This document shows positions 2,556 to 20,000 of a DNA stretch of 20,000 nt, piece after piece (position 1 is the first letter of the stretch; every line of letters begins with the position of its first letter). The notes beneath the pieces were generated by a model that was not told the DNA's origin, searched no databases, and saw only the letters and a list, made by a program, of their open reading frames with translations. Source of the stretch: Vermamoeba vermiformis (Eukaryota); assembly GCA_045837725.1 (NCBI GenBank), contig JBEWZL010000198.1, positions 173,379 to 193,378 on the forward strand. The letters run 5' to 3'. The position numbers and the translations under genes were made by a program.

Positions 2556-5500
2556 ATGCGCCCATATCTAGTGATTCTGTTGGTACTATTCGTGGCATGG
2601 AATGCAAGTGGTGATCTTATAACAAAGCGAGCCCAATTATCATCAAAGCGTGACGGAGTTGGCGGCATCCAAGTTGCAGATCGATTCTACTTTGCTGGTG
2701 GCATGGAACTCAACGACTATATTCCCACAAATATCGTCGAAATATACAATATAACATCGGGAGAATGGGAAGAGCCGATTTACTTGCAAGAGCCTCGTGC
2801 ATTCATCTCAACAGCTGTCATCGGTCAAAATATTTATTTTATTGGCGGATATCGGCTCTCTAATTCCTGTGCAATGCTTTACAACTCTGTTTTACATCAA
2901 TACGAAGACATTGGATGTGGCCCAACAGTTCGTCAAGCAATCCAAATATCGGATTACAATTCCACGTTGACAGTTCTTGGAGCGTTCTCTGCTGACTTCT
3001 ACAATATCACTTCAGCGCAGTGGTACTACCGGCCAAAGCTCACAACATGGATGCAGAGCATGGGTGGTGGAGCAGTACTGGTTCACGAAAACTTGGTCGT
3101 TGGCATCGGAGGTGTCAACTCAACGACGTTCGAACAGATCTATGACGCGTGGATTTACGACACTTATACAGATGAACTGACAGTATTCAGCAACGCCACA
3201 ACAGCAGATATTGTGGTTTCATCTTCGGACTTCTCTGTGGCTCACGGCCGTGTCGTCATCTACGTTACTGGCTGGTACTTTGTGCACGAGTTTGGTACGA
3301 CAGAATGGCACGAAGGCTTTATGCCGAATATTTCAAATGTAGCAATCCTCCCTGACGCCATATTCTTGTTCAATATAACTGGTTTCACCATTTACGACTG
3401 GAGTTCTATGGAGCCAAGATGGGTAGTTGGATACGTCATAAACACATTCGTTTTCGACAATCAAATAGTGATAGATCTAGGAAGCAGCCTGCTCGTCTAT
3501 GAATCAGCACAGTTGACGACAATTAACCTTGATTCTCTGATACGACGTGCGGTTCGTTTTGGTCAGTCAGGTGACAAGTACATGTTTTACACCAGCAGCA
3601 GTCAACTTCGTCTCTACGATTCACAAACAAAGAGCATATCAAACTTGTCTCTAGTCGTAGTAGATGTCAGGTGGATGATCCCTTTTGACGACACAACATT
3701 GGTTCTTTTCACGACAAGCACCGCAACTATCTATTACTTGAACAACGACACGAGCATTGATCAAACAATATCTATGACTTACTCAGGGTACCTCATCGGT
3801 ACTGATATAGTCAGTGTCAACGATCAGAAAGTGTGGATCAATCTTGGCGAAACAAGAGCGTTGAACCTCACCTTATCCCGCTAAATTAATTGACAATGCT
3901 GCGATTTTTGGACAGACTGGTCAAAGTTATTTCTTCATGGACGTATTCAACCACGTGACGAGAGAATGGCAGCCAAGAATACCAATGGACTCTAACCCCT
4001 ACGGCTTGTATCTACCAGTAGTCGTGATTGACGACTTGATTACCGTTGGAAAGAGACCTTGGACTTTTCGATATAATGTCACGAGCGGAGAGTCATCTAC
4101 AACGATGGTGGCTTCAAATTCATGGCCTATGGGTCGAGTAGTCAACACTGTGTCCGTTGTGAATCACACAGGTTACCTCCCAGGCACAACTTCGTCCATG
4201 ATTATCTCTGTCAACTCAACGACAGTGACTTTTTCCGATGACTTGCAGCTCAGTGGCGCACCAATACAATTCGTTACCAGCAACGACAACGTCATTTATA
4301 TGACAGTATATGAAGGACATTACTACAGCCTACACACATATGATATAGTGAATGACTTGGTGGATACACTAGTCTTGCCACAACCACAAGACTCCGTGTC
4401 AATAGCAATATTCAATGACACGTTGATTGCCTTAGGAAGCGATGGAAATGCTTATGGCTTATTACGAAGTGACAAATTAACGTGGTACAAAGTTCCGTTG
4501 CAAAGCAATTTTTTTCGGCCAATCACGGCCATGATGAAAGACGGCACAATGATGGTAGCGGCAGGAAGACACAATATCCTTAAAACTTATACGGACGAGT
4601 TACTCTTCATCAATGCATCGGCTGTCATCGAGTTGGGCACTAAGATATCGATTAATCAACCTTTCACCGACAGAACGCCTAGTACGCCGGACGCAGCCAG
4701 CCCGAACCAACAGAGTGGATTGACACAAGGAGAACTCGCAGCAGCAGTTGTCGTACCTGTAGTCGTTGTCATTGGAGGCCTCATAGCACTCATAGTCGTA
4801 TTGCTCAAGAGAAGGCGCAGCAACAAGAAGAAAGGCTCATCAAACACTGTTGGTCTCGAGGCACGGTTCGGAGCATGGTTCACTCCGTTCAATCAGATCA
4901 CTTTCAGAGAGCAGCTCGGTCAAGGAGGATCAGGTCAAGTGTTCAAAGGCACTTGGAAGAACACAACAGTTGCACTCAAAGTGAGCATGACTCAAGCAAA
5001 CACGAGTGTCATCGCTGAACTCGAACTCATGATGCAACTCAGACCTCATCCAAATGTCGTTCAGTTGCTTGGCTTCAGTGTGCATCCAGAGACAGACAGC
5101 ATCATTTTGATCATCGAGTTCTGTGAAGGTGGTTCACTTGACGCCAAGCTCTATGACAAGCACCACGATGACATATCACTTCAAAATCAGCTTCAATGGC
5201 TCACGGGCATCGCCAAAGGACTCAGTCACTTGCATTCGAACAACATCGTGCACAGGGATGTTGCTGCGAGGAACATCTTGCTTGATAGAAACGAACCAAA
5301 ACTGACTGACTTTGGCATGTCACGACTCGTTGATGAACAAAAACAACACGGAACAACAAAGTCAGAACTTGGACCAATCAGATGGATGTCACCAGAGTCG
5401 TTGAAGAACAAAGAATACTCCACAAAGTCTGGTAAGTTTGTAAAGCGAAGCTCTTATTGTGTTTCCTGTGCACACGTCAATAACCTCTTCGTTCAGACGT

Positions 5501-5741
5501 GTGGTCATTTGGTATTCTGAGGTACGAAGTGATTGCACGACAAGAGCCTCACAGCGAAGCAGATCCGATCGAGATTGGTCGACTCATCAGAGACTCAGGT
5601 TTGACACCTGTCATTCCATCGTCGTGTCCTTCTCAGCTCGCTGATGTCATGAAACAATGCTGGCAAATGTCGCCACAATCAAGACCAACTATAGAGGCCA
5701 TTATTCCATCATTGGAGGCTTTACGAATATCGCTTCAGTAG
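2556..5741 (+). pseudogene. Kelch-ectodomain receptor tyrosine kinase, copy 1, frameshifted at ~3865-3881 (probable pseudogene or assembly indel); kinase intron 5432-5496
   Basis: ORFs 2556-3884 and 3937-5431 are collinear with the N- and C-halves of the intact paralogues but in different frames. The second frame is open back to 3865 (..PYPAKLIDNAAIFGQTGQSYFFMDVFN). Signal peptide, TM (AAAVVVPVVVVIGGLIALIVVLL) and HRDVAARN/DFG/PIRWMSPE are present; last exon 5497-5741. Confidence 0.72.
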
Positions 5742-6168
5742 ATTATGATAAAGCTCGGAAAATTAAATTAAAGTTACCTTCTTAGGGTATTAAATCAAGT
5801 ATTCATGATTATTTAGATTTTCACCGATGCTACTAAAAGATGCAGTATGACTGACTTTTTGCCAGATCCCAAGTATCTAATGATTACGCGCGTGTGAATT
5901 CCGAAAGCGTAAACACGTACAAATTTTGACGTTTTTATCTTTATGGCATTAACGCATATTAGACACTATACCAGTTAGGTATAACGCTAATCAGTCAAGA
6001 GTGCTCGTGGCTGCAAGGTAACTTTCATGATTAGATCTTCCCTGAATGAGCATGATTAAATGCTGTTCGTTTATTTTATTATTAAATTTACACTTTAAAC
6101 CTGATTACAGCATTTATTTTTCTGTCGGCTAAATATTTTTTCAATTAGGGACACGAATCAACGATCCG
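5742..6168 (+). repeat. Repeated intergenic spacer, copy A (3'UTR, promoter and 5'UTR)
   Basis: Closely similar to 9350-9773 and 12938-13380, e.g. shared GTATCTAATGATTACGCGCGTGTGAATTC and GCATTAACGCATATTAGACACTATACCAGTTAGGTATAACGCTAATC. Confidence 0.9.
6018..6148 (+). other. Candidate 5'UTR intron of RTK copy 2 (equivalents: 9622-9753 in copy 3, 13223-13360 in copy 4)
   Basis: AAG|GTAACT (GTACCT in copies 3 and 4) ... GCTAAA ... TTTTTTCAATTAG|G, ending 20 nt before the ATG; removal would delete upstream ATGs. Confidence 0.5.
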
Positions 6169-9100
6169 ATGCGGCTTTTGATTCTCTTCGTGCTATATTG
6201 CAGCTCATTAGTTGCCACGAGCAATATAGTTACAAAGCAAACCCAATTGTCTGCAAAACGTGACGGAGTTGGTGGAATCCAAGTTGCAGATCAATTCTAT
6301 TTTGCTGGTGGCTTCGAACTCCATGACTATATTCCCACAAATATTGTCGAAATATACAATATAACATCAGGAGAATGGGAAGAGCCGATTTACTTGCAAG
6401 AGCCTCGTGGATTCATCTCCACAGCTGTCATCGGTCAAAATATTTATTTTATTGGCGGAACTCGGGTGCTCTACTGCACTGCACTATATAATTCTTCTTC
6501 GCATCAATATGAAGATATTGGATGTGGACCAACAGTTCGGAAAATACCCGGCCAGATCACGAACCAAAATGCAACAGTTACCATACTAGGAAGTTTCTCG
6601 GTGGATCTTTATAACATTACGTCAAAACAGTGGTACTACTTCCCGAAGCTGACATCATGGATGCAAAATATTAGTAGCGGTTTCTCACTCATTCATGAAA
6701 ACCTCATCATTGGAGTTGGAGGTTTCAACGCAACGACGCTGGACCTGATCAATGACGCGTGGATTTACGACACTTTTACAGATGAACTGACAGTATTCAG
6801 CAACGCCATTACCACACTCAACACATTAAACACGGCATTCAGATTCACCGTGGCCAACGGCAGGGTCGGCATATACACCGTTGACAGGTTCATTTCGCAT
6901 CAATTCGGCACGACGGAATGGCGCGAAGTTTTCGTGAACAATATTTTGCAAGCGGCGATCCTCCCCGACGTTCTATTCTTGGTCAACGACACAAGTTATG
7001 CAGTCTATGACTGGAGCACTGAAACCTTGACATTCACGCTTGACCGAATCTACAACCTTTATCCGTTTGGAAGTCAACTTGTTCTCGATCGAAAAACAGC
7101 TCTTCGTATCTATGAAGCTGGACAATGGACAGATTTGCAACTCGCTTCATCAATATATACGAACGTTCGTTGGCTCAACAGATTAGTCTTTCAAGGTGCA
7201 GACAATCGGTTGCAATTCTATGATTCACTCACGAAGAGCATATGGACGTCATCAACAACGCCAGTCAATGTTGTATCGTTTCTTCCATTTGACGACGATA
7301 GATTAGTCATATTCATGCCCGGCCGATTGGCGACCATCTATTACGCTAGCAATGACAGCCTATCAGCAGTTTTCGCCGCTAATATGACGAGTGGCGTCGT
7401 CGTTGGCACCGATATTATTGGTGTAGACTCTCAGACTGTGTTGGTCAACTTGAGTCAGGTGATGCCGTTGACCAGAATGACTTCGTCAGCATCGTCTGAT
7501 TACACAGTCTTGCGTGGCTACCTGACTGACTATAATTACATCGATGTCTACAATTATGCGACGCGGTCGTGGCTGCCACAGATATTTATGAACCTAACGC
7601 AACAGCTTGGTGTCAACTATCCAAATATAGTTGTAATTGACGATTTGTTAATCGTAATGAAGAGATTCGGTTATTTTCGCTATAATACCACCACCGGAGA
7701 GATATTTGTGAATTTAAGCACGGCAGTCGCGGCACCCCTGTTCCGCACACTTACCAGAGTTCCCGTCGTTGATCGGATTGGCTATCTTCCTGGCACTGCA
7801 GTTTCATCAATGATTTATTTCAACTCCACGTACCTCGCATTCGTTGACGCCCTATTCTTACCAGATAGAACCAACCAATTCACTACTAGTCCCGAGAACG
7901 TAATATACATGTCGGCTACTTCTCAAACCGTGTTCTCCAAGATTTTCATTTACAATATCTCAAGCGGAATGTTGGACACGGCGGTATTGCCATCACCACC
8001 GTCAAGTGCATTCGTGGCAACTGTCAACAATGTCACACTTGCGTTCGGCACTGGCGGAGATATCTTTGGATTTTATCATAGTGACCCTTCAAAGTGGTAC
8101 ACGACACCGTTCAACTACAGCATATCACCTACTATCATCGAGATTGTGGCTGATGGAACGCTAATGCTGGCCAGCGGAAGACACTTTCAGCTTGGATTTT
8201 ACAACGACCAGATTCTTTTCGTCAATGCATCAGCTATCATTGGGCTAGGCTCCGTGGTGTCTGAGCCAGTAACTGGAACAGAACCTACTGCTTACAATGT
8301 CCCGCTAGACAGTCCCGGTGGTGCAAGTGCCTTGGCGACTGGAGAGCTTGCTGCTGCCATCGTTGTCCCGGTTGTAGTTGTCATCGGAGGTGTCATAGCA
8401 CTCGTCATCGTATTGATCAAACGAAGAAAACACAAATCGTCAACTACAATTGGATTGGAGGCACGGTACGGAGCATGGTTCACTCCGTTCAACCAGATCA
8501 CTTTCGGAGAGCAGCTGGGTCAAGGAGCATCAGGTCAAGTGTTCAAAGGCACTTGGAAGAACACAACAGTTGCACTCAAAGTGAGCATGACTCAAGCAAA
8601 CACGAGTGTCATCGCTGAACTCGAACTCATGATGCAACTCAGACCTCATCCAAATGTCGTTCAGTTGCTTGGCTTCAGTGTGCATCCAGAGACAGACAGC
8701 ATCATTTTGATCATCGAGTTCTGTGAAGGTGGTTCTCTCGACTCCACGTTGTACGACGCTGCCGACGACCTGTCACCGCAAACTCAAGTTCAATGGCTCA
8801 CAGGCGTAGCAAAAGGGCTTGGTCACTTGCATTCGAACAATGTCGTGCACAGAGATGTTGCAGCGAGGAACGTGTTACTTCACAGAAACGAACCAAAACT
8901 GACTGATTTTGGCATGTCACGACTCGTTGACGAACAGAAACAACACGGAACAACAAAGTCAGAACTTGGACCAATCAGATGGATGTCACCAGAGTCGTTG
9001 AAGAACAAAGAGTACTCCACAAAGTCAGGTAAGTTCAACACTTTGACACGCGTCAATGACTCGGGACTGATGAAGCATCATTACTAACAAGTAAGTTTTA

Positions 9101-9349
9101 ACAGATATTTGGTCGTTTGGTATTCTCATGTTCGAGGTCATTGCACGACAAGAGCCTCACAACGAAGCAGATCCGATCGAGATTGGTCGATTGATCAGAG
9201 ACTCAGGTTTGACACCTGTCATTCCATCGTCGTGTCATCCTCAACTCGCTGATGTTATGAAGCAATGCTGGCAGATGTCGCCACAATCAAGACCAACTAT
9301 AGAGGCCATTATTCCAGAATTGGAGGCAGTACGAATATCGCTTCATTAG
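6169..9349 (+). CDS. Kelch-ectodomain receptor tyrosine kinase, copy 2, ~1034 aa. Exons 6169-9028, 9105-9349
   Basis: Signal peptide MRLLILFVLYCSSLVA; Kelch-like motifs (FYFAGG..VEIYN..W, PR..STAVIGQNIYFIGG); many NxS/T sequons; TM at ~8347-8418 followed by KRRK; kinase motifs GQGASGQV, VALK, HRDVAARN, DFG, PIRWMSPE. The 76-nt intron 9029-9104 (GTAAGT..TACTAAC..CAG) restores SD-IWSFG. Confidence 0.93.
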
Positions 9350-9773
9350 ATTATGATAAAGCATCCGGAAAATTAAATTCTAGTTACCTTCTTAGGGTAT
9401 TAGATCCAGTATTCATGATGATTTAGATTTTCCCCGATGCTACTTAAAGATATAGTCTGCTCTGACTTCCAAGTATCTAATGATTACGCGCGTGTGAATT
9501 CAGAAAGCGTATTCACGTACAAATTTTGACGTTTTTTATCTTTATGGCATTAACGCATATTAGACACTATACCAGTTAGGTATAACGCTAATCAGTCAAG
9601 AGTTGTCGTGTCTGGTGCAAGGTACCTATTCAGATTAGATCTTCCCTGAATGAGCATGATTAAATGCTGTTCCGTTTATTTTATTACTACATTTACACTT
9701 TAAACCTGATTACAGCATTTATTTTTCTGTCGGCTAAATATTTTTTCAATTAGGACGCGAATCAAAGATCCGG
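9350..9773 (+). repeat. Repeated intergenic spacer, copy B
   Basis: Same conserved blocks as 5742-6168 with small indels. Confidence 0.9.
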
Positions 9774-12700
9774 ATGCGGCTTTTGATTCTCTTCGTGCTA
9801 TATTGCAGCTCATTAGTTGCCACGAACAATATAATTACAAAGCAAACCCAATTGTCTGCAAAACGTGACGGACTTGGTGGAATCCAAGTTGCAGATCAAT
9901 TCTATTTTGCTGGTGGCTTCGAGCTCAACGATTATATTCCCACAAATATTGTCGAAATATACAATATAACATCCGGAGAATGGGAAGAGCCGATTTACTT
10001 GGAAGAGCCTCGTGGATTCATCTCAACAGCTGTCATCGGTCAAAATATTTATTTTATTGGCGGAACTCGGGTGCTCTACTGCACTGCACTATATAATTCT
10101 TCTTCGCATCAATATGAAGATATTGGATGTGGACCAACAGTTCGGAAAATACCCGTCCAGATCACGAACCAAAATGCAACAGTTACCATACTAGGAAGTT
10201 TCTCGGTGGATTTTTATAACATTACGTCCAAACAGTGGTACTACTTCCCGAAGCTGACATCATGGATGCAAAATATTAGTAGCGGTTTCTCACTCATTCA
10301 TGAAAACCTCATCATTGGAGTTGGAGGTTTCAACGCAACGACGCTCGACTTGATCAATGACGCGTGGATCTACGACACTTATACAGATGAACTGACAGTA
10401 TTCAGTAACGCCATTACCACACTCAACACAGTAAACAAGAGTTTCAAATTCACCGTGGCCAACGGCAGAGTAGGCATATACACCACTGACGATAGGTTCA
10501 TTTCACATCAATTCGGCACGACGGAATGGCGCGAAGTTTTCGTGAACAATATTTTGCAAGCAGCGATCCTCCCCGACGTTCTATTCTTGGTCAATGACAC
10601 AAGCTATGCAGTCTATGACTGGAACACTGAAGCCTTGACATTCACGCTTGACCGAATCTACAACATTTATCAGTTTGGAAGTCAACTTGTTCTCCATCGC
10701 TTAACCTCGCTTCGTATCTATGAAGCTGGCCAATGGACAGAATTGCAACTCGCTTCATCAATGTATACTTCCGCTCGATGGCTCAACAGAATAGTCTTTC
10801 GAGGTGCAGGCAATCAGTTGCCATTCTATGATTCACTCACGAAGAGCATATGGACGTCCTCATCAACAGCGCCATTCAATATTGTGTCGTTTCTTCCATT
10901 TGACGACGATAGATTAGTCATATTCATGAGCGGCCAATTGGCGACCATCTATTACGCAAGCAATGACAGCCTATCAGCAGTTTTCGCCGCTAATATGACA
11001 AGTGGCGTCGTCGTTGGCACCGATATTATCAGCTTAGACTCTCAGACTGTGTTGATCAACTTGACTCAGGTGATGCCGTTGACCAGAATGACGACGTCAG
11101 CATCGTCTGATTACACAGTCTTGCGTGGCTACCTGAGCGACTATAATTACATCGATGTCTACAATTATGTGACGCGGTCGTGGCAGCCACAGATATTTAT
11201 GAACCTAACGCAACAAATTGGTGTCAACTATCCAAATATAGTTGTAATCGACGATTTGTTAATCGTAATGAAGAGATTCGGTTATTTTCGCTATAATACC
11301 ACCACCGGAGAGATAGTGACGTTAAACACGGCAGTCGGGGCACCCTTCTTCCGCACACTTAACAGAGTTCCCATCGTTGATCGGATTGGCTATCTTCCTG
11401 GCAGTGCGCCTTCAGCAATGATTTCTTTCAACTCCACATCTCTCACATTCGTTGACACCCTATCCTTACCAGAGAGAACCAACCAATTCACTACTAGTCC
11501 CGAGAACGTAATCTACATGTCGGCTAATTCTCAAGGCGTGTTCTCCAAGATTTTCATTTACAATATCTCAAGCGGAATGTTGGACACGGCGGTATTGCCA
11601 TCACCACCGTCAAGTGCATTCGTGGCAACTGTCAACAATGTCACGCTGGCATTCGGCACTGGCGGAGATATCTTTGGATTTTATCATAGTGACCCTTCAA
11701 AGTGGTACACGACACCGTTTAACTACAGCATATCACCTACTATCATCGAGATTGTGGCTGATGGAACGCTAATGCTGGCCAGCGGAAGACATTATCAGCT
11801 TGGATTTTACAACGACCAGATTCTTTTCGTCAACGCGTCAGCTATCATTGCGCTAGCCTCCGTGGTGTCTGAACCGGTAACTGGAACAGAACCTACTTAC
11901 AATGTCCCGCTAGACAGTCCCAGTGGCTTGGCGACTGGAGACCTTGTTGCTGCCATCGTTGTCCCGGTTGTGGTTGTCATTGGAGGCGTCATAGCGCTCG
12001 TCATTGTGTTGGTAAAGCGAAGGCGCAACAACAAGAAGAAAGGCTCATCAAACACCGTTGGTCTCGAGGCACGGTTCGGAGCATGGTTCACTCCGTTTGA
12101 TCAGATCACTTTCGGAGAGCAGCTCGGTCAAGGAGCATCAGGTCAAGTGTTCAAAGGCACTTGGAAGAACACAACAGTTGCACTCAAAGTGAGCATGACT
12201 CAAGCAAACACGAGTGTCATCGCTGAACTCGAACTCATGATGCAACTCAGACCTCATCCAAATGTCGTTCAGTTGCTTGGCTTTAGCGTGCATCCAGAGA
12301 CAGACAGCATAATCTTGATCATTGAGTTCTGTGAAGGCGGTTCTCTCGATGCCAAGTTGTACGATGAGACACACGAGATATCATTCAAGGATCAAGTTCA
12401 ATGGCTTGTTGGTGTTGCAAAAGGACTCAGTCACTTGCATTCGAACAACATCGTGCATCGTGATATCGCAGCGAGAAATGTTCTGATCGACAGAAACGAA
12501 CCAAAACTGACTGACTTCGGAATGTCGCGACTCGTTGACGAACAGAAACAACACGGAACAACAAAGTCAGAACTTGGACCAATCAGATGGATGTCGCCAG
12601 AGTCGTTGAAGAACAAAGAGTACTCCACAAAGTCAGGTAAAGCGTGCTCTTATTGTGTTACCTGTTCACAAGTCAATAACCTCTTCGTTCAGACGTGTGG

Positions 12701-12937: not shown

Positions 12938-13380
12938 ATTATGACAAAGCATCCGGAAAATTAAATTAAAGTTACCTTCTTCGGTAATTAACTCAAGTAT
13001 TCATGATGATTTAGATTTTCCCCGATGCTACTAAAAGATATAGTCTGCTATGACTTTTTGCCAGATACCCCAAGTATCTAATGATTACGCGCGTGTGAAT
13101 TCAGAAAGCGTATTCACGTACAAATTTTGACGTTTTTTATCTTTATGGCATTAACGCATATTAGACACTATACCAGTTAGGTATAACGCTAATCAATCAA
13201 TAGGTCTCGTGTCTAGTGCAAGGTACCTATTCTAATCATGATTAGATCTTCCCTGAATGAGCATGATTAAATGCTGTTCCGTTTATTTTATTACTGCATT
13301 TACACATTTAAACTGGTTACAGCATTTATTTTTCTGTCGGCTAAATATTTTTTCAATTAGGACGCGAATCAAAGATCCGG
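12938..13380 (+). repeat. Repeated intergenic spacer, copy C
   Basis: Same conserved blocks as 5742-6168 and 9350-9773; no resemblance seen to the spacer at 16609-17121. Confidence 0.9.
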
Positions 13381-16300
13381 ATGCGGCTTTTGATTCTCTT
13401 CGTGCTATATTGCAGCTCATTAGTTGCCACGAACAATATAATTACAAAGCAAACCCAATTGTCTGCAAAACGTGACGGAGTTGGCGGCATCCAAGTTGCA
13501 GATCAATTTTATTTTGCTGGTGGCTTCGAACTCCATGACTATATTCCCACAAATATTGTCGAGATATACAATACAACATCGGGAGAATGGGAAGTGCCGA
13601 TTTACTTGCAAGAGCCTCGTGGATTCATCTCCACAGCTGTCATTGGCCAAAATATTTATTTTATTGGCGGAACTCGGGTGCTCTACTGCACTGCACTATA
13701 TAATTCTTCTTCGCATCAATATGAAGATATTGGATGTGGACCAACAGTTCGGAAAATACCCGGCCAGATCACGAACCAAAATGCAACAGTTACCATACTA
13801 GGAAGTTTCTCGGTGGATTTTTATAACATTACGTCCAAACAGTGGTACAACTTCCCGAAGCTGACATCATGGATGCAAAATATTGGTAGCGGTTTCTCAC
13901 TCATTCATGAAAACCTCATCATTGGAGTTGGAGGTTTCAACGCAACGACGCAGGACCTGATCAATGACGCGTGGATTTACGACACTTCTAAAGATGAACT
14001 GACAGTATTCAGCAACGCCATTACCACACTCAACACATTAAACAAGAATTTCAGATTCACCGTGGCCAACGGCAGAGTCGGCATTTTCACCACGGACAGG
14101 TAAACGACAAGTCTACCATGAGCTGCAGCGAAGCTAAAAGACGGACAGGTTCATTTCTCATCAGTTCGGCACGACGGAATGGCGCGAAGTTTTCGTGAAC
14201 AATATTTTGCAAGCAGCGATCCTCCCCGACGTTCTATTCTTGATCAACGACACAAGTTATGCGGTCTATGACTGGAACACTGAAGCCTTGATATTCACGC
14301 TTGACCGAATCTACAACATTTATCCGTTTGGAAGTCAACTTGTTCTCGATCGAAAAACGGCTCTTCGTATCTATGAAGCTGGCCAATGGACAGAATTGCA
14401 ACTCGCTTCATCAATATATACGAACGTTCGTTGGCTCAACAGATTAGTCTTTCAAGGTGCAGGCAATCAGTTGCAATTTTACGATTCACTCACGAAGAGC
14501 ATAAGCACGTCATCAACAACGCCAGTCAATGTTGTATCGTTTCTTCCATTTGACGACGATAGATTAGTCATATTCATGCCCGGCCAATTGGCGACCATCT
14601 ATTACGCTAGCAATGACAGTCTATCAGCAGTTTTCGCCGCTAATATGACAAGTGGCATCGTCGTTGGCACGGATATCCTCGGTTTAGACACTCAGACTGT
14701 GTTGATCAACTTGAATCAAGTGATGCCGTTGACCAGAATGACGACGTCAGCATCGTCTGATTACACAGTCTTGCGTGGCTACCTGAGCGACTATAATTAC
14801 ATCGATGTCTACAATTATGTGACGCGGTCGTGGCAGCCACAGATATTTATGAACCTAACGCAACAGCTTGGTGTCAACTATCCAAATACAGTTGTAATTG
14901 ACGATTTGTTGATCGTAACGAAGAGATACGGTTATTTTCGCTATAATACCACCACCGGAGAGATATTTGCGAATTTAAACACGGCAGTCGCATCACCCCT
15001 GTTCCGCACACTTACCAGAGTTCCCGTCATTGATCGGATTGGCTATCTTCCTGGCACTGCAGTTTCATCAATGACTTATTTCAACTCCACATCTCTCACA
15101 TTCGTTGACACCCTATTCTTACCAGATAGAATCAACCAATTCACTACTAGTCCCGAGAACGTAATCTACATGTCGGCTACTTCTCAAACCCTGTTCTTCA
15201 AGATTTTCATTTACAATATCTCAAGCGGAATGTTGGACACGGCAGTATTGCCATCACCACCGTCAAGTGCATTCGTGGCAACTGTCAACAATGTCACACT
15301 GGCGTTCGGCACCGGCGGAGATATCTTTGGATTTTATCATAGCGACCCTTCAAAATGGTTCACGACCCCGTTCAACTACAGCATATCACCTACTATCATC
15401 GAGATTGTGGCTGATGGAACGCTAATGCTGGCCAGCGGAAGACACTATCAGCTTGGATTTTACAACGACCAGATTCTTTTCGTCAACGCGTCAGCTATCA
15501 TTGGGCTAGGCTTCGTGGTGTCTGAGCCAGTACCTGGAACAGAACCTACTGTTTACAATGTCCCGCTAGACAGTCCCAGAGGTCCAAGTGGTTTGGTGAC
15601 TGGAGACCTTGTTGCTGCCATCGTTGTCCCGGTTGTAGTTGTCATCGGAGGTGTCATAGCACTCGTTATTGTGCTGGTCAAGCGAAGACAAAACAACAAG
15701 GAGAAAGGCTCGTCAAACACTGTTGGTCTCGAGGCACGGTTCGGAGCATGGTTCACTCCGTTCAATCAGATCACTTTCGGAGAGCAGCTGGGTCAAGGAG
15801 CATCAGGTCAAGTGTTCAAAGGCACTTGGAAGAACACAACAGTTGCACTCAAAGTGAGCATGACTCAAGCAAACACGAGTGTCATCGCTGAACTCGAACT
15901 CATGATGCAACTCAGACCTCATCCAAATGTCGTTCAATTGCTTGGCTTCAGTGTGCATCCAGAGACAGACAGCATCATCTTGATCATTGAGTTCTGTGAA
16001 GGTGGTTCACTTGATGCCAAGCTCTATGACAAGCACGATGACATATCACTTCAAACACAAGTTCAATGGCTCGCAGGCATTGCCAAAGGACTCAGTCACT
16101 TGCATTCGAACAACATCGTGCATCGTGATATCGCAGCGAGAAATGTTTTGCTTGACAGAAACGAACCAAAACTGACTGACTTTGGCATGTCACGACTCGT
16201 TGACGAACAGAAACAACACGGAACGACAAAGTCAGAACTCGGACCGATCAGATGGATGTCACCAGAGTCGTTGAAGAACAAAGAGTACTCCACAAAGTCT

Positions 16301-16608
16301 GGTAAGTTCAAGACAGTGACACCGTCAATGACTTGCCTTTGACGCGTGTCATTCTAACGCACTCGTACACAGACATTTGGTCATTCGGTATTCTCATGTT
16401 CGAGGTCATTGCACGACAAGAGCCTCACAGCGAAGCAGATCCCATCGAGATTGGGCGATTGATCAGAGACTCAGGTTTGACACCTGTCATTCCATCGTCG
16501 TGTCATCCTCAACTCGCTGATGTCATGAAACAATGCTGGCAGATGTCACCGCAATCAAGACCAAAGATAGAAGCGATAATTGAGTCTTTGGAATCACTTA
16601 CAATCTGA
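13381..16608 (+). CDS. Kelch-ectodomain receptor tyrosine kinase, copy 4, ~1035 aa if the 49-nt insertion is spliced. Exons 13381-14099, 14149-16301, 16373-16608
   Basis: Removing GT..AG 14100-14148 gives FTTDR|FISHQ, collinear with copy 2 (YTVDRFISHQ). Kinase intron 16302-16372 (71 nt, GTAAGT..CTAAC..CAG). All kinase motifs intact; distinct C-terminus IESLESLTI. Confidence 0.85.
14100..14148 (+). other. Copy-4-specific 49-nt putative spliceosomal intron (phase 2) with a 10-bp direct repeat ACGGACAGGT at its junctions
   Basis: ACGGACAGGT at 14092-14101 and again at 14141-14150; CAG|GTAAAC donor and CAG|G acceptor; absent from the other four paralogues; precise removal restores the frame. Confidence 0.8.
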
Positions 16609-16966
16609 AACTATAAAAGCAGCTTTATTGTCTGAAGCTAGATCAGAGAATTGGGATGCTAACGTAAAGAATGCCAACGAGCCTCGTATCGCGTTCAAGA
16701 CGGGCTTTGCTTTGAATTAATTTGATTTGGACTTCAATTTCGTCAAGGCCAACAGGTGAATGTAACCTGCAGTCGCACATGTAACCAGTGCACAAATCAA
16801 ATTAAACGACTCACAATGAATGAACGTAGATTTCCAATTGTGACGATTAATACGTCATTTTCGCATCGGCAGTAGTTAGAAGCAGCAAGGCTAATTAATT
16901 TAATTAAATTAAATTAAAAAAGCCAAAAAATTAGCGGCAATAATTTAAGCCCAACGATCTTCTTCT

Positions 16967-17121: not shown

Positions 17122-20000
17122 ATGGTGCATCCAATTGTGGCTACGCTCTTAGCGTTCACTCTGTGCCTTACAATTGCCCATAGCACTCTTGTGATTAAAA
17201 AAGAGCGCTTCTCTGCACCACGTGACGCAGTTGGAGCGATCCGAGTTGCAGATCAATTTTATTTTGCTGGTGGCTTCGAGTTCAACAATTATGTTCCCAC
17301 AAATATCGTCGAAATATACAATATAACATCAGGAGAATGGGAAGAGCCGATTTTCTTGGAAGAGCCTCGTGGACTCATCTCAACAGCTGTCATCGGCCAA
17401 AATATTTACTTTGTTGGCGGAACACGCTTCCCAAATTCATGTGCAATGCTTTACAACTCGTCTTTACATCAATACGAAGACATTGGATGTGGCCCTACTG
17501 TTCGGACGCCAATTCAAGTCTCGAATCACAACTCAACAGTGACAGTTCTCGGAGCGTTCTCCGCTGACTTCTTCAACTCTTCGAAGCAATGGGAATACAT
17601 ACCAACTCTAACATCATGGATGCAAGGAATCAGTGGAGGGATCAAGTTCGTGCACGAAAACTTCGTAGTTGGCATTGGAGGTGTCAACACAACGACACTC
17701 GAATCGATCTATGACGCGTGGATCTACGACACCGATGGACGCAACTTGACAGTATTGAACAGCGTCATTACAACAAATAATCTCAATTCGACTTTTGGCT
17801 TCACTGGAGCTCATGGTAGACTTGTCGTTTACTCGTATGACAGGTACTTTGTGCATCAGTTTGGCACGGAAGAATGGCGCGAAGTTCTCCTAGACAGTCC
17901 GACACAGGCAGTAGTACTCAGTGACGTGGCGTTTGTGTTCAATAGATACGGATACAGCGTTTATGATTGGAGCACCAACGTCGCCAACTGGACGGCCAAA
18001 ACATTCCAAAACGTACTGTCGTTCGAAAATCAATTAGTGCTGGTTGACAATTTTGCGCTTGATATCTACGAAGCTGGATCGTGGAGTTCCATGGGGTTAA
18101 CCAATCAAGTTATTCAGGCGTATCGTTGGTTTGACAAGTACATCTTTTACAATCCTGCAGACGATCTGCGTGTCTACGACTCGAAGGCAAGATCAATCTC
18201 AATAATACCAAGCACAAAAACTGATTACTGGTCGTCAATAGTACCAGTAGATTCCAACACCGTAGTTCTGTTTTGGCCGGGAGGAAACGCTTCAATTTTC
18301 AATTACGAGACGCAGTACTTATCTCCTGCACTTCCAGTAAATTTCCTCGGCTACTTTGCAATTGGAACAGATATCATCAATCTGAACAACCAATTATCTT
18401 GGATCAACTTCAACGAAACTATTACTATTACAGCAATGCAATCATTACAATCGAATGACCACACCGCTCTTGCGCAAATGGGAGTTCGAGAGCGATACCA
18501 AAAGATCAATGTATACAATTACAAGACTAAGACGTGGCTACCAGATATAGAACTGCAACTGAAACAGGCAGACCCGAGGTTAGCTTTCTCTCCGGTGATG
18601 GTCATTGACGACGTGCTCATTGCATTGCTGGGACAGTACACGTATCGATACAACACTACAAGCGGTGAATTGCTTCAAGTATATGACGGCCAATTGTCCT
18701 TCTACTTCACTGTCAACGCAGTGCCCGTGGTTGATGGTGTGGGCTATTTGCCGAGCCTCGTAGTTTCCGTAATCCTTTGTGTCAATTCAACTTCGATCGA
18801 ACGTGTTCCACAACCAGGCGAAGATTCAACATGGCAGTTTGTGACTAAAGATAATGTCATGCATATTTCAACGTCGACTACTGGATCAAATTTCATGAAT
18901 ATTTACACGTACGACATCAATACCGGAACCATGGACACTTATGCGTTGCCAAGGCCTCAAGACAAGTTATCAATTGCAATCGTTGACAGTACTCTGGTGG
19001 CATTAGGCAGCGACGGACTGGCATACGCGGTGAATCTAAACGACAAATCAATCTGGTACACAGTACCGTTCCAATACGGCTTCGTTTCAACAATATCAAC
19101 AGGATTGCAAGATAGGACAGTCATGGTGGCAGGAGGAAAGCACTATCAACTTGGACATTACACAGACGAGATATTGTTCCTCAACGCATCCGTTATCCTC
19201 GAGTCTGATGTCATCGTTGATCTCACACCTCATGCGTCGAACAATGATACAACTCCGAACAACAGCCAAGCACTGACTGACGGAGAGCTCGCAGCAGCAA
19301 TTGTAGTGCCTGTAGTCGTTATCATTGGAGGTGTCATAGCGCTCATAGTCGTATTGATCAAGAGAAGACGCGGCAACAAGAAGAAAGGCTCATCAAGCAC
19401 TGTTGGTCTCGAGGCACGATATGGAGCATGGTTCACTCCGTTCAATCAGATCACTTTCAAAGAGCAGCTCGGTCAAGGAGCGTCGGGTCAAGTGTTCAAA
19501 GGCACTTGGAAGAACACAACAGTTGCACTCAAAGTGAGCATGACTCAAGCAAACACGAGTGTCATCGCTGAACTCGAACTCATGATGCAACTCAGACCTC
19601 ATCCAAATGTCGTTCAATTGCTTGGTTTTAGCGTGCATCCAGAGACAGACAGCATCATTTTGATCATCGAGTTCTGTGAAGGCGGTTCGCTCGATGCCAA
19701 GTTGTACAACGAAACAACAAAGATGTCATTCAGCGATCAAGTTCAATGGCTTGTTGGTGTTGCAAAAGGACTCAGTCACTTGCATTCGAACAATGTCGTG
19801 CACAGAGATGTTGCTGCGAGGAACGTGTTACTTGACAGAAACGAACCAAAACTGACTGACTTTGGCATGTCACGACTCGTTGATGAACAAAAACAACACG
19901 GAACAACAAAGTCAGAACTTGGACCAATCAGATGGATGTCACCAGAGTCGTTGAAGAACAAAGAGTACTCCACAAAATCAGGTACGATTTGGCACTTTGA
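17122..20000 (+). CDS. Kelch-ectodomain receptor tyrosine kinase, copy 5 (divergent), 3'-partial. Exon 17122-19981, kinase intron begins at 19982
   Basis: Absent from the ORF track because no stop occurs inside the window. Manual translation: MVHPIVATLLAFTLCLTIAHS (signal), ..FYFAGGFEFNNYVPTNIVEIYNITSGEW.., TM LAAAIVVPVVVIIGGVIALIVVLI-KRRR, HRDVAARN, DFGMSR, PIRWMSPE, YSTKS-G|gtacga at the same intron position as the other copies. Confidence 0.92.
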   Translation, partial: MVHPIVATLLAFTLCLTIAHSTLVIKKERFSAPRDAVGAIRVADQFYFAGGFEFNNYVPTNIVEIYNITSGEWEEPIFLEEPRGLISTAVIGQNIYFVGGTRFPNSCAMLYNSSLHQYEDIGCGPTVRTPIQVSNHNSTVTVLGAFSADFFNSSKQWEYIPTLTSWMQGISGGIKFVHENFVVGIGGVNTTTLESIYDAWIYDTDGRNLTVLNSVITTNNLNSTFGFTGAHGRLVVYSYDRYFVHQFGTEEWREVLLDSPTQAVVLSDVAFVFNRYGYSVYDWSTNVANWTAKTFQNVLSFENQLVLVDNFALDIYEAGSWSSMGLTNQVIQAYRWFDKYIFYNPADDLRVYDSKARSISIIPSTKTDYWSSIVPVDSNTVVLFWPGGNASIFNYETQYLSPALPVNFLGYFAIGTDIINLNNQLSWINFNETITITAMQSLQSNDHTALAQMGVRERYQKINVYNYKTKTWLPDIELQLKQADPRLAFSPVMVIDDVLIALLGQYTYRYNTTSGELLQVYDGQLSFYFTVNAVPVVDGVGYLPSLVVSVILCVNSTSIERVPQPGEDSTWQFVTKDNVMHISTSTTGSNFMNIYTYDINTGTMDTYALPRPQDKLSIAIVDSTLVALGSDGLAYAVNLNDKSIWYTVPFQYGFVSTISTGLQDRTVMVAGGKHYQLGHYTDEILFLNASVILESDVIVDLTPHASNNDTTPNNSQALTDGELAAAIVVPVVVIIGGVIALIVVLIKRRRGNKKKGSSSTVGLEARYGAWFTPFNQITFKEQLGQGASGQVFKGTWKNTTVALKVSMTQANTSVIAELELMMQLRPHPNVVQLLGFSVHPETDSIILIIEFCEGGSLDAKLYNETTKMSFSDQVQWLVGVAKGLSHLHSNNVVHRDVAARNVLLDRNEPKLTDFGMSRLVDEQKQHGTTKSELGPIRWMSPESLKNKEYSTKSGTIWHF

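Follow-up and report, generated by a model that had tools for sequence, protein, structure and literature searches.

Where the 49 nucleotides that interrupt the main exon of one receptor-kinase gene in Vermamoeba vermiformis came from, and whether the cell would remove them as an intron, is the question raised by this locus. We analyzed a window of 20,000 nucleotides (the whole stretch of DNA presented here), which holds five tandem plus-strand genes, all encoding kelch-ectodomain receptor kinases: copy 1 (2556 to about 5730), copy 2 (6169 to about 9331), copy 3 (9774 to about 12919), copy 4 (13381 to about 16599) and copy 5 (17122 to past the window end). Every copy combines a signal-like N-terminus, a kelch-like ectodomain, a transmembrane segment and a kinase of Tyr/Ser-Thr type, and the closest full-length proteins in a large protein collection are 46-50% identical. 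With the insert removed, the main exon of copy 4 is 94.1% identical to that of copy 2 and 93.3% identical to that of copy 3, while copies 4 and 5 are 64% identical overall.

A short intron splits the kinase domain at one position common to all copies, as shown by a two-part match to a transcript-derived homologue (P0001). In copy 4 this intron (16302..16372, plus strand, 71 nt, GTAAGT...TTCTAAC...CACAG) is taken here as the reference for what a genuine intron looks like and is followed by the last coding exon (16373..16599, plus strand), which encodes the kinase C-lobe and is intact across its aligned part. The corresponding plus-strand introns of copies 1, 2 and 3 lie at 5432-5496 (65 nt), 9029-9104 (76 nt) and 12637-12692 (56 nt), respectively. 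These introns are of two sequence types, one in copies 1 and 3 and the other in copies 2 and 4, a division that cuts across ectodomain similarity: the main exons of copies 2, 3 and 4 are 93-94% alike and copy 1 is distant, yet copy 1 shares its intron type with copy 3. This pattern suggests that the array underwent gene conversion or is mosaic in origin. The kinase intron of copy 1 also has two stacked donors (GTAAGTTTGTAAAG).

Several other features of the array were noted when the window was compared with contigs of two further data sets, X1 and X5, the latter a separate water-metagenome run. Copy 1 appears in the window as two ORFs (2556-3884 and 3937-5520) with frames one base apart; 1 nt at 3875 is absent from an X5 contig, in which the frame then continues into ...FFMDVFNHVTREW, like the other copies. 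The split at window positions 3861-3940 is either a true frameshift in the strain or a 1-nt assembly error. Just 3' of the copy 4 coding end, 55 nt at 16606-16662 are replaced by 17 other letters in an X1 contig, a strain or allele difference in the copy 4 3' region. Finally, X1 word depth is about 5- to 10-fold higher over the kinase parts (e.g. 4995 at 4670-5336), suggesting that many further family members are present in that genome.

The interruption in copy 4 is bounded by a perfect direct repeat. The 10-mer ACGGACAGGT occurs at 14092..14101 and again at 14141..14150 (10/10 identical, 49 nt start to start), and the two repeats enclose a 39-nt core, AAACGACAAGTCTACCATGAGCTGCAGCGAAGCTAAAAG, at 14102..14140 (all plus strand). 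The left repeat carries AG/GT at 14098-14101 (the slash marks the splice boundary), which forms the candidate donor, and the right repeat carries the candidate acceptor AG at 14147-14148. Because the duplicated 10-mer holds AG/GT, the 49-nt addition starts with GT and ends with AG, and the candidate intron (GTAAAC...GACAG, plus strand) spans 14100..14148, with its GT at 14100-14101. It divides the main coding exon into a 5' part encoding the signal-like N-terminus and kelch-like ectodomain (13381..14099, plus strand) and a 3' part encoding the remaining ectodomain, the transmembrane segment and the kinase N-lobe (14149..16301, plus strand), whose spliced frame is open.

No other site for the 10-mer was found in the window when up to one mismatch was allowed, the repeat pair being its sole two occurrences. 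Direct repetition of this kind is not rare per se, as 37 of 200 shuffles gave at least two matches to the 10-mer and three pairs of 10-nt direct repeats within 100 nt of each other are present in the window; what goes beyond chance expectation is that this pair bounds exactly the only gap of copy 4 against copies 2 and 3. The gap measures 49 nt relative to copy 2 and 46 nt relative to copy 3, which carries one extra codon.

The consequences for the reading frame are straightforward. Left in place, the insert ends the copy 4 ORF (13381-14103) after 240 amino acids, ...GIFTTDR, with a TAA at 14101-14103. Removal of 14100-14148 yields an open exon of 2872 nt that is colinear with copies 2 and 3 and would read ...GIFTTDRFISHQFGTTEW, the copy 2 counterpart being ...YTVDRFISHQFGTTEW. 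The bases of copy 4 at the predicted junction are ...ATTTTCACCACGGACAG/GTTCATTTCTCATCAG..., several of which differ in copies 2 and 3. The insert length is not a multiple of three, and the other coding indels among copies 2-4 all are. No inverted repeat pairs were found in 14060-14180, and thus no terminal inverted repeats; the predicted RNA fold of 14030-14170 (-26.6 kcal/mol, z -0.29 against shuffles) showed no excess structure and no hairpin of the insert with its own upstream exon. These results agree with an earlier note on this DNA, which had described a copy-4-only insertion flanked by a 10-bp duplication with AG/GT and lacking terminal inverted repeats, whose excision restores the paralogous protein exactly and whose retention gives an immediate TAA and a 240-residue fragment.

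As the assembly differs from the X1 and X5 contigs by several single nucleotides, including the one at 3875 that breaks copy 1, it may hold small indel errors, and the insertion could in principle be one of them. Against this stands a 731-nt X5 contig (record 14), which spans 13747-14477 colinearly, has no gaps and differs at 10 letters; neither the X1 nor the X5 contigs show a joint or a left-out stretch at 14100-14148. Furthermore, a protein from another public record (P0008, source contig 3711 nt) has 240 amino acids, four residue differences from the window and the same ...GIFTTDR end. Because the X5 contig spans the insert and P0008 stops at the same residue, the insertion is present in at least two lineages about 1-1.5% from the window. 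Nor would an assembly error typically yield an insert of 49 nt that is structured and has a core derived from a paralogue (see below). An artefact, the possibility that the earlier note had wished to see checked, thus carries a negligible probability, the insertion being borne out by both records.

We then considered the direction of change. The site is uninterrupted in 12 of 12 homologues, i.e. the four window paralogues (copies 1, 2, 3 and 5), all seven database proteins compared (P0001-P0007), among which D239 and R240 are invariant at the site, and one distant locus (L001, 32% identity) recovered from JGI metagenome contigs by profile search. The duplicated 10-mer is specific to copy 4, with copies 2, 3 and 5 reading GTTGACAGGT, ACTGACGATAGGT and TATGACAGGT, respectively; since both 10-mer copies are identical and copy-4-specific, the event is placed in the copy 4 lineage. 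Judged from these comparisons, gain is far likelier than loss, in line with the view of the earlier note, and an ancestral intron is ruled out because all 12 homologues are uninterrupted and the sequence is derived; no distant paralogue with an intron at this site, which would have spoken for an old intron, was seen among them.

The origin of the core became apparent from comparison of the window with itself. Positions 14100-14143 match the reverse complement of copy 5 positions 17789-17832 at 40 of 44 positions (E 1.4e-12), and this pair is the only minus-strand self-match at E<1e-3 in the 20 kb. The core proper is identical to the reverse complement of 17792-17830 at 36 of 39 positions. Copy 5 positions 17789..17832 (plus strand), the insert's closest template, encode ...TFGFTGAHGRLVVY; 3 nt separate them from the downstream TATGACAGGT (17836-17845), the copy 5 homologue of the duplicated 10-mer with its AGGT site. 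In other words, the insert is an inverted version of the paralogous counterpart to the exon sequence directly upstream of the insertion site. The earlier note had associated short direct repeats at new intron junctions with repair of staggered breaks and with Introner-type elements; the core, however, is neither anonymous nor Introner-like, but inverted copy-5-type coding sequence from the homologous position (36/39, or 40/44 with the junction bases).

Which paralogue was copied may be read from alignment scores. The insert scores 36 when aligned to the copy 5 segment, against 8-12 for the counterparts of that segment in copies 1-4 (10 for the upstream segment of copy 4 itself). Because of this difference, and because copies 4 and 5 are only 64% identical, the template was a copy-5-type gene and not copy 4 itself. 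The three core differences from copy 5 would all be nonsynonymous in copy 5; one of them is T14135, where copy 5 GCCAAAAG corresponds to GCTAAAAG in the insert. At the left junction target and template have GT in common (2 nt of microhomology), and at the right junction there are 0 to 2 nt, none clear, the ACG of the insert facing TCG of the copy 5 reverse complement; copy 5 is the closest template, and the exact donor may differ. Also, 44 nt complementary (40/44) to copy 5 mRNA would be present in copy 4 transcripts that keep the insert, or in the candidate intron once excised.

As the 40/44 reverse-complement match is the sole minus-strand match in the window, it argues that a copy-5-type paralogue was copied in inverted orientation. 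We consider it very probable that this templated copying, together with a 10-bp target duplication, produced the insert in the copy 4 lineage. Two other sources were weighed. An intron formed by tandem duplication of an AGGT-containing exon segment was rejected, as only the 10-mer is directly duplicated and the core is inverted and copy-5-like (score 10 on the upstream segment of copy 4 versus 36 on copy 5). An Introner-like or other mobile element, i.e. a short non-autonomous transposon generating a 10-bp target-site duplication, would account for the flanking direct repeat, but the core copies a paralogue exon from the homologous position and is not an independent element, terminal inverted repeats are missing, and 39 nt is far below the size of known mobile elements. 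Moreover, a 24-mer of the core gave 0 matches in JGI metagenome contigs, and within the 20-kb window its only other copy is the paralogous copy 5 exon. A mobile element is therefore extremely improbable, and the sequence indicates that the core was supplied by a paralogue, through templated repair or a template switch.

The following series of steps could generate the observed structure. During break repair or replication, a DNA 3' end reading ...ACGGACAGGT in the copy 4 lineage would leave its own template and, through 2-nt microhomology (GT on AC), prime synthesis on a copy-5-type paralogue, with the sense strand as template and 13 nt back from the homologous position. About 39 nt would be copied there, hence their antisense orientation, before a return to the original template 10 nt behind the departure point, by which ACGGACAGGT would be duplicated. 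Either the displaced sense DNA strand of the paralogue or its mRNA could have been the template, as the product cannot tell which, and a later C-to-T change at 14135 may have made the CTAA branch motif. We infer the order of the template switches and the enzyme pathway from the product; at 39 nt, the copied core is longer than typical templated insertions of alternative end joining.

A related scenario places the event elsewhere. An ancestral intron might have been lost from the other genes, or gene conversion might have brought the intron into copy 4 from a further, unseen paralogue in which the insert had formed in cis by snap-back on its own copy-5-like sequence. The cis route has some appeal, given that on copy-5-like sequence a 3' end ...GACAGGT folding onto ...GTTTAC yields exactly this insert, and the mosaic kinase introns (copies 1/3 versus copies 2/4) imply that sequence exchange between copies happens. 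It is, however, at odds with the absence of such an intron from 12 of 12 homologues and with the 10-mers themselves: both are identical and copy-4-specific, even though the second lies inside the insert, where the donor's own version would be expected. Both flanks are, furthermore, 93-94% identical to copies 2 and 3. Taken together, we regard loss from the other genes or transfer from another one as highly improbable, and a direct gain in copy 4 templated by a copy-5-type gene as the preferred account of the origin.

Next, the candidate splice signals were compared with those of the local introns. In the kinase introns of copies 1-4 (n=4), lengths range from 56 to 76 nt and CTAAC or ATAAC lies 13-17 nt ahead of the AG. 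The candidate donor, CAG/GTAAAC, is close to that of the copy 3 kinase intron, CAG/GTAAAG, and matches the consensus at an equal number of positions; the donors of the copy 1, 2 and 4 kinase introns read G/GTAAGT (the comparison sample being four introns). A branch-point-like motif is present in GCTAAAAG (14133..14140, plus strand), where the A at 14137, 11 nt from the end of the candidate intron, would be the branch nucleotide. The role of the motif is putative, and it reads CTAAA, 11 nt ahead of the AG, as opposed to the CTAAC/ATAAC of the genuine local introns. No pyrimidine tract precedes the candidate AG (AAGACGGACAG), and at 49 nt the candidate is shorter than the smallest of the four measured kinase introns (56 nt).

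The earlier note had pointed to a GCTAAA motif shared with candidate 5'UTR introns of copies 2-4, which we also find, there 16-17 nt ahead of the AG. These candidate 5'UTR introns lie at 6018-6148 (copy 2), 9622-9753 (copy 3) and 13223-13360 (copy 4), measure 131-138 nt, have the form CAAG/GTA...GGCTAAATATTTTTTCAATTAG/G and are conserved between the copies.

The GT...AG ends, a donor like that of the genuine copy 3 intron, the CTAAA motif and a near-local size together make removal by the spliceosome plausible, with restoration of the frame. On these signals the chances that the 49-nt insert is a spliced intron appear evenly poised. The same holds for the explanation as a whole, i.e. a paralogue-templated inverted insertion acting as a newborn spliced intron, to which we would give about an even chance. 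Its most specific form is put forward more tentatively, as a proposition a little short of an even chance: a newborn spliceosomal intron, made when about 39 nt of antisense sequence from a neighbouring paralogue exon were taken up during break repair at an AGGT site, with the 10-bp duplication giving both splice sites.

The main competing reading accepts the same origin and holds that the insert is unspliced or poorly spliced. Under it, the 49-bp insertion would be disabling, and copy 4 would be a young pseudogene or would encode an N-terminal ectodomain fragment of 240 amino acids only, its transcripts being exposed to nonsense-mediated decay. The TAA directly after the donor and an insert length that is not a multiple of three are as expected from such a lesion, as are the missing pyrimidine tract, the imperfect branch motif and a length below that of the four measured introns. 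That array members can decay is illustrated by copy 1, which is frameshifted in this assembly. In the databases, P0008 is recorded as a 240-residue product and was the only shorter relative found in the protein collection; a search of the same collection with the copy 4 downstream ORF gave no match at E<=0.001, and no long downstream ORF of a close relative was seen there.

Expression data bear on this reading in one respect only. In two RNA runs (X21 and X23) carrying the same species label as the best-matching DNA run, 7 and 10 reads, respectively, of about 13 million records each were placed at a likeness of at least 97%. All lay in bins other than those of copy 4, where the kinase is conserved, and the majority had only a partial fit. 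Copy 4 expression was therefore not detected in these runs, which would fit a disabled gene; since all five genes are nearly absent from the reads, the runs say nothing about splicing. The near-absence of array reads may reflect either an array that is silent in those conditions or RNA from a diverged strain.

In contrast to what a disabling insertion would lead one to expect, copy 4 is fully open and intact over its 2.15-kb downstream exon and its last exon. Lineages that differ by about 1.4% (10 of 731 nt) share the insertion, the other coding indels are all in frame and the donor is as strong as that of the genuine copy 3 intron. Likewise, copy 4-lineage dN/dS 3' of the insert is 0.21 (19 nonsynonymous, 28 synonymous), not above the values of the intact copies 2 (0.29) and 3 (0.21), although this low value could date from before a recent insertion. 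None of these observations, i.e. openness, shared insertion, dN/dS, indels and donor strength, excludes recent inactivation of copy 4. Among the best-supported strain differences listed against the X1 and X5 contigs, six nonsynonymous and three synonymous changes fall in copy 4 3' of the insert; this nominally favors inactivation and is uninformative given the 3:3 ratio of the intact copy 2 (copy 1, 7:4). We rejected these counts as a test of constraint, as they are too few, cover only the best-supported differences, and include many alternative letters that are the copy 2/copy 3 state. Overall, loss of function through an insert that is not, or only poorly, spliced is a serious contender that falls somewhat below an even probability.

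Several known processes resemble what is seen at this locus. Short template-switch mutations, reportedly described by Loytynoja and Goldman in 2017, are said to create inverted copies of nearby sequence. In the same way, the copy 4 insert reproduces, in inverted orientation, sequence lying within a few bases of the switch point; unlike in those mutations, the copied strand came from a paralogue and 49 nt were added rather than sequence replaced. The insert also fits a break-repair model, described in PMC3443670, in which introns are gained with direct repeats at their flanks. Break-repair intron gain with filler DNA has in common with the copy 4 insert its absence from relatives, a short direct repeat, DNA copied from elsewhere in the genome and an AGGT protosplice site. 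The reported filler is mitochondrial DNA or of unknown source, whereas in copy 4 it is the antisense of a paralogue exon at the homologous position, and what it forms is a candidate intron. Tandem duplication of an AGGT exon segment (PMC3443670) similarly lets a duplicated AGGT supply donor and acceptor for exact excision; in copy 4, by comparison, only 10 bp are directly duplicated, and the other 39 nt are an inverted paralogue copy rather than adjacent exon.

On the repair side, the steps proposed above bear the hallmarks of templated insertion or template switching, which PMC7407515 describes for synthesis-dependent end joining and MMBIR. As in the templated insertions of alternative end joining (SD-MMEJ, polymerase theta) and in MMBIR, copy 4 shows an identifiable template, an inverted copy, 2-nt microhomology on the left and a repeat motif created by the event; the difference is that in copy 4 the template is a 64%-identical paralogue and not the broken locus itself. 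Introners and introner-like elements (PMC8469720) are short sequences appearing as new introns, some families having target-site duplications. Copy 4 differs by showing no sign of a multi-copy family within the window, no terminal inverted repeats and an exon-derived sequence. In the partially covered literature on intron gain and templated insertion, we found no account of an intron that arose from antisense sequence of a paralogue's exon, which is no proof of absence. The copy 4 insert is accordingly best filed, as a candidate intron, as a variant of break-repair intron gain.

To our knowledge, all models of intron gain are at their weakest in explaining where the new sequence comes from, and most young introns match nothing. 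In copy 4, one can read directly from the DNA what sequence was the donor, in which orientation it was copied, where the switches took place and what was duplicated at the target. If the insert is not spliced, copy 4 would be an ordinary young pseudogene whose mutational origin is unusually well documented. If it is spliced, templated repair between tandem paralogues would have turned an antisense exon into an intron in a single step, tying intron gain to the signatures of template-switch repair, and one by-product would be 44 nt within the copy 4 pre-mRNA that are complementary to the mRNA of copy 5. The array would then hold an intron caught in the act of formation, made from the gene family's own exon read backwards and traceable base by base.
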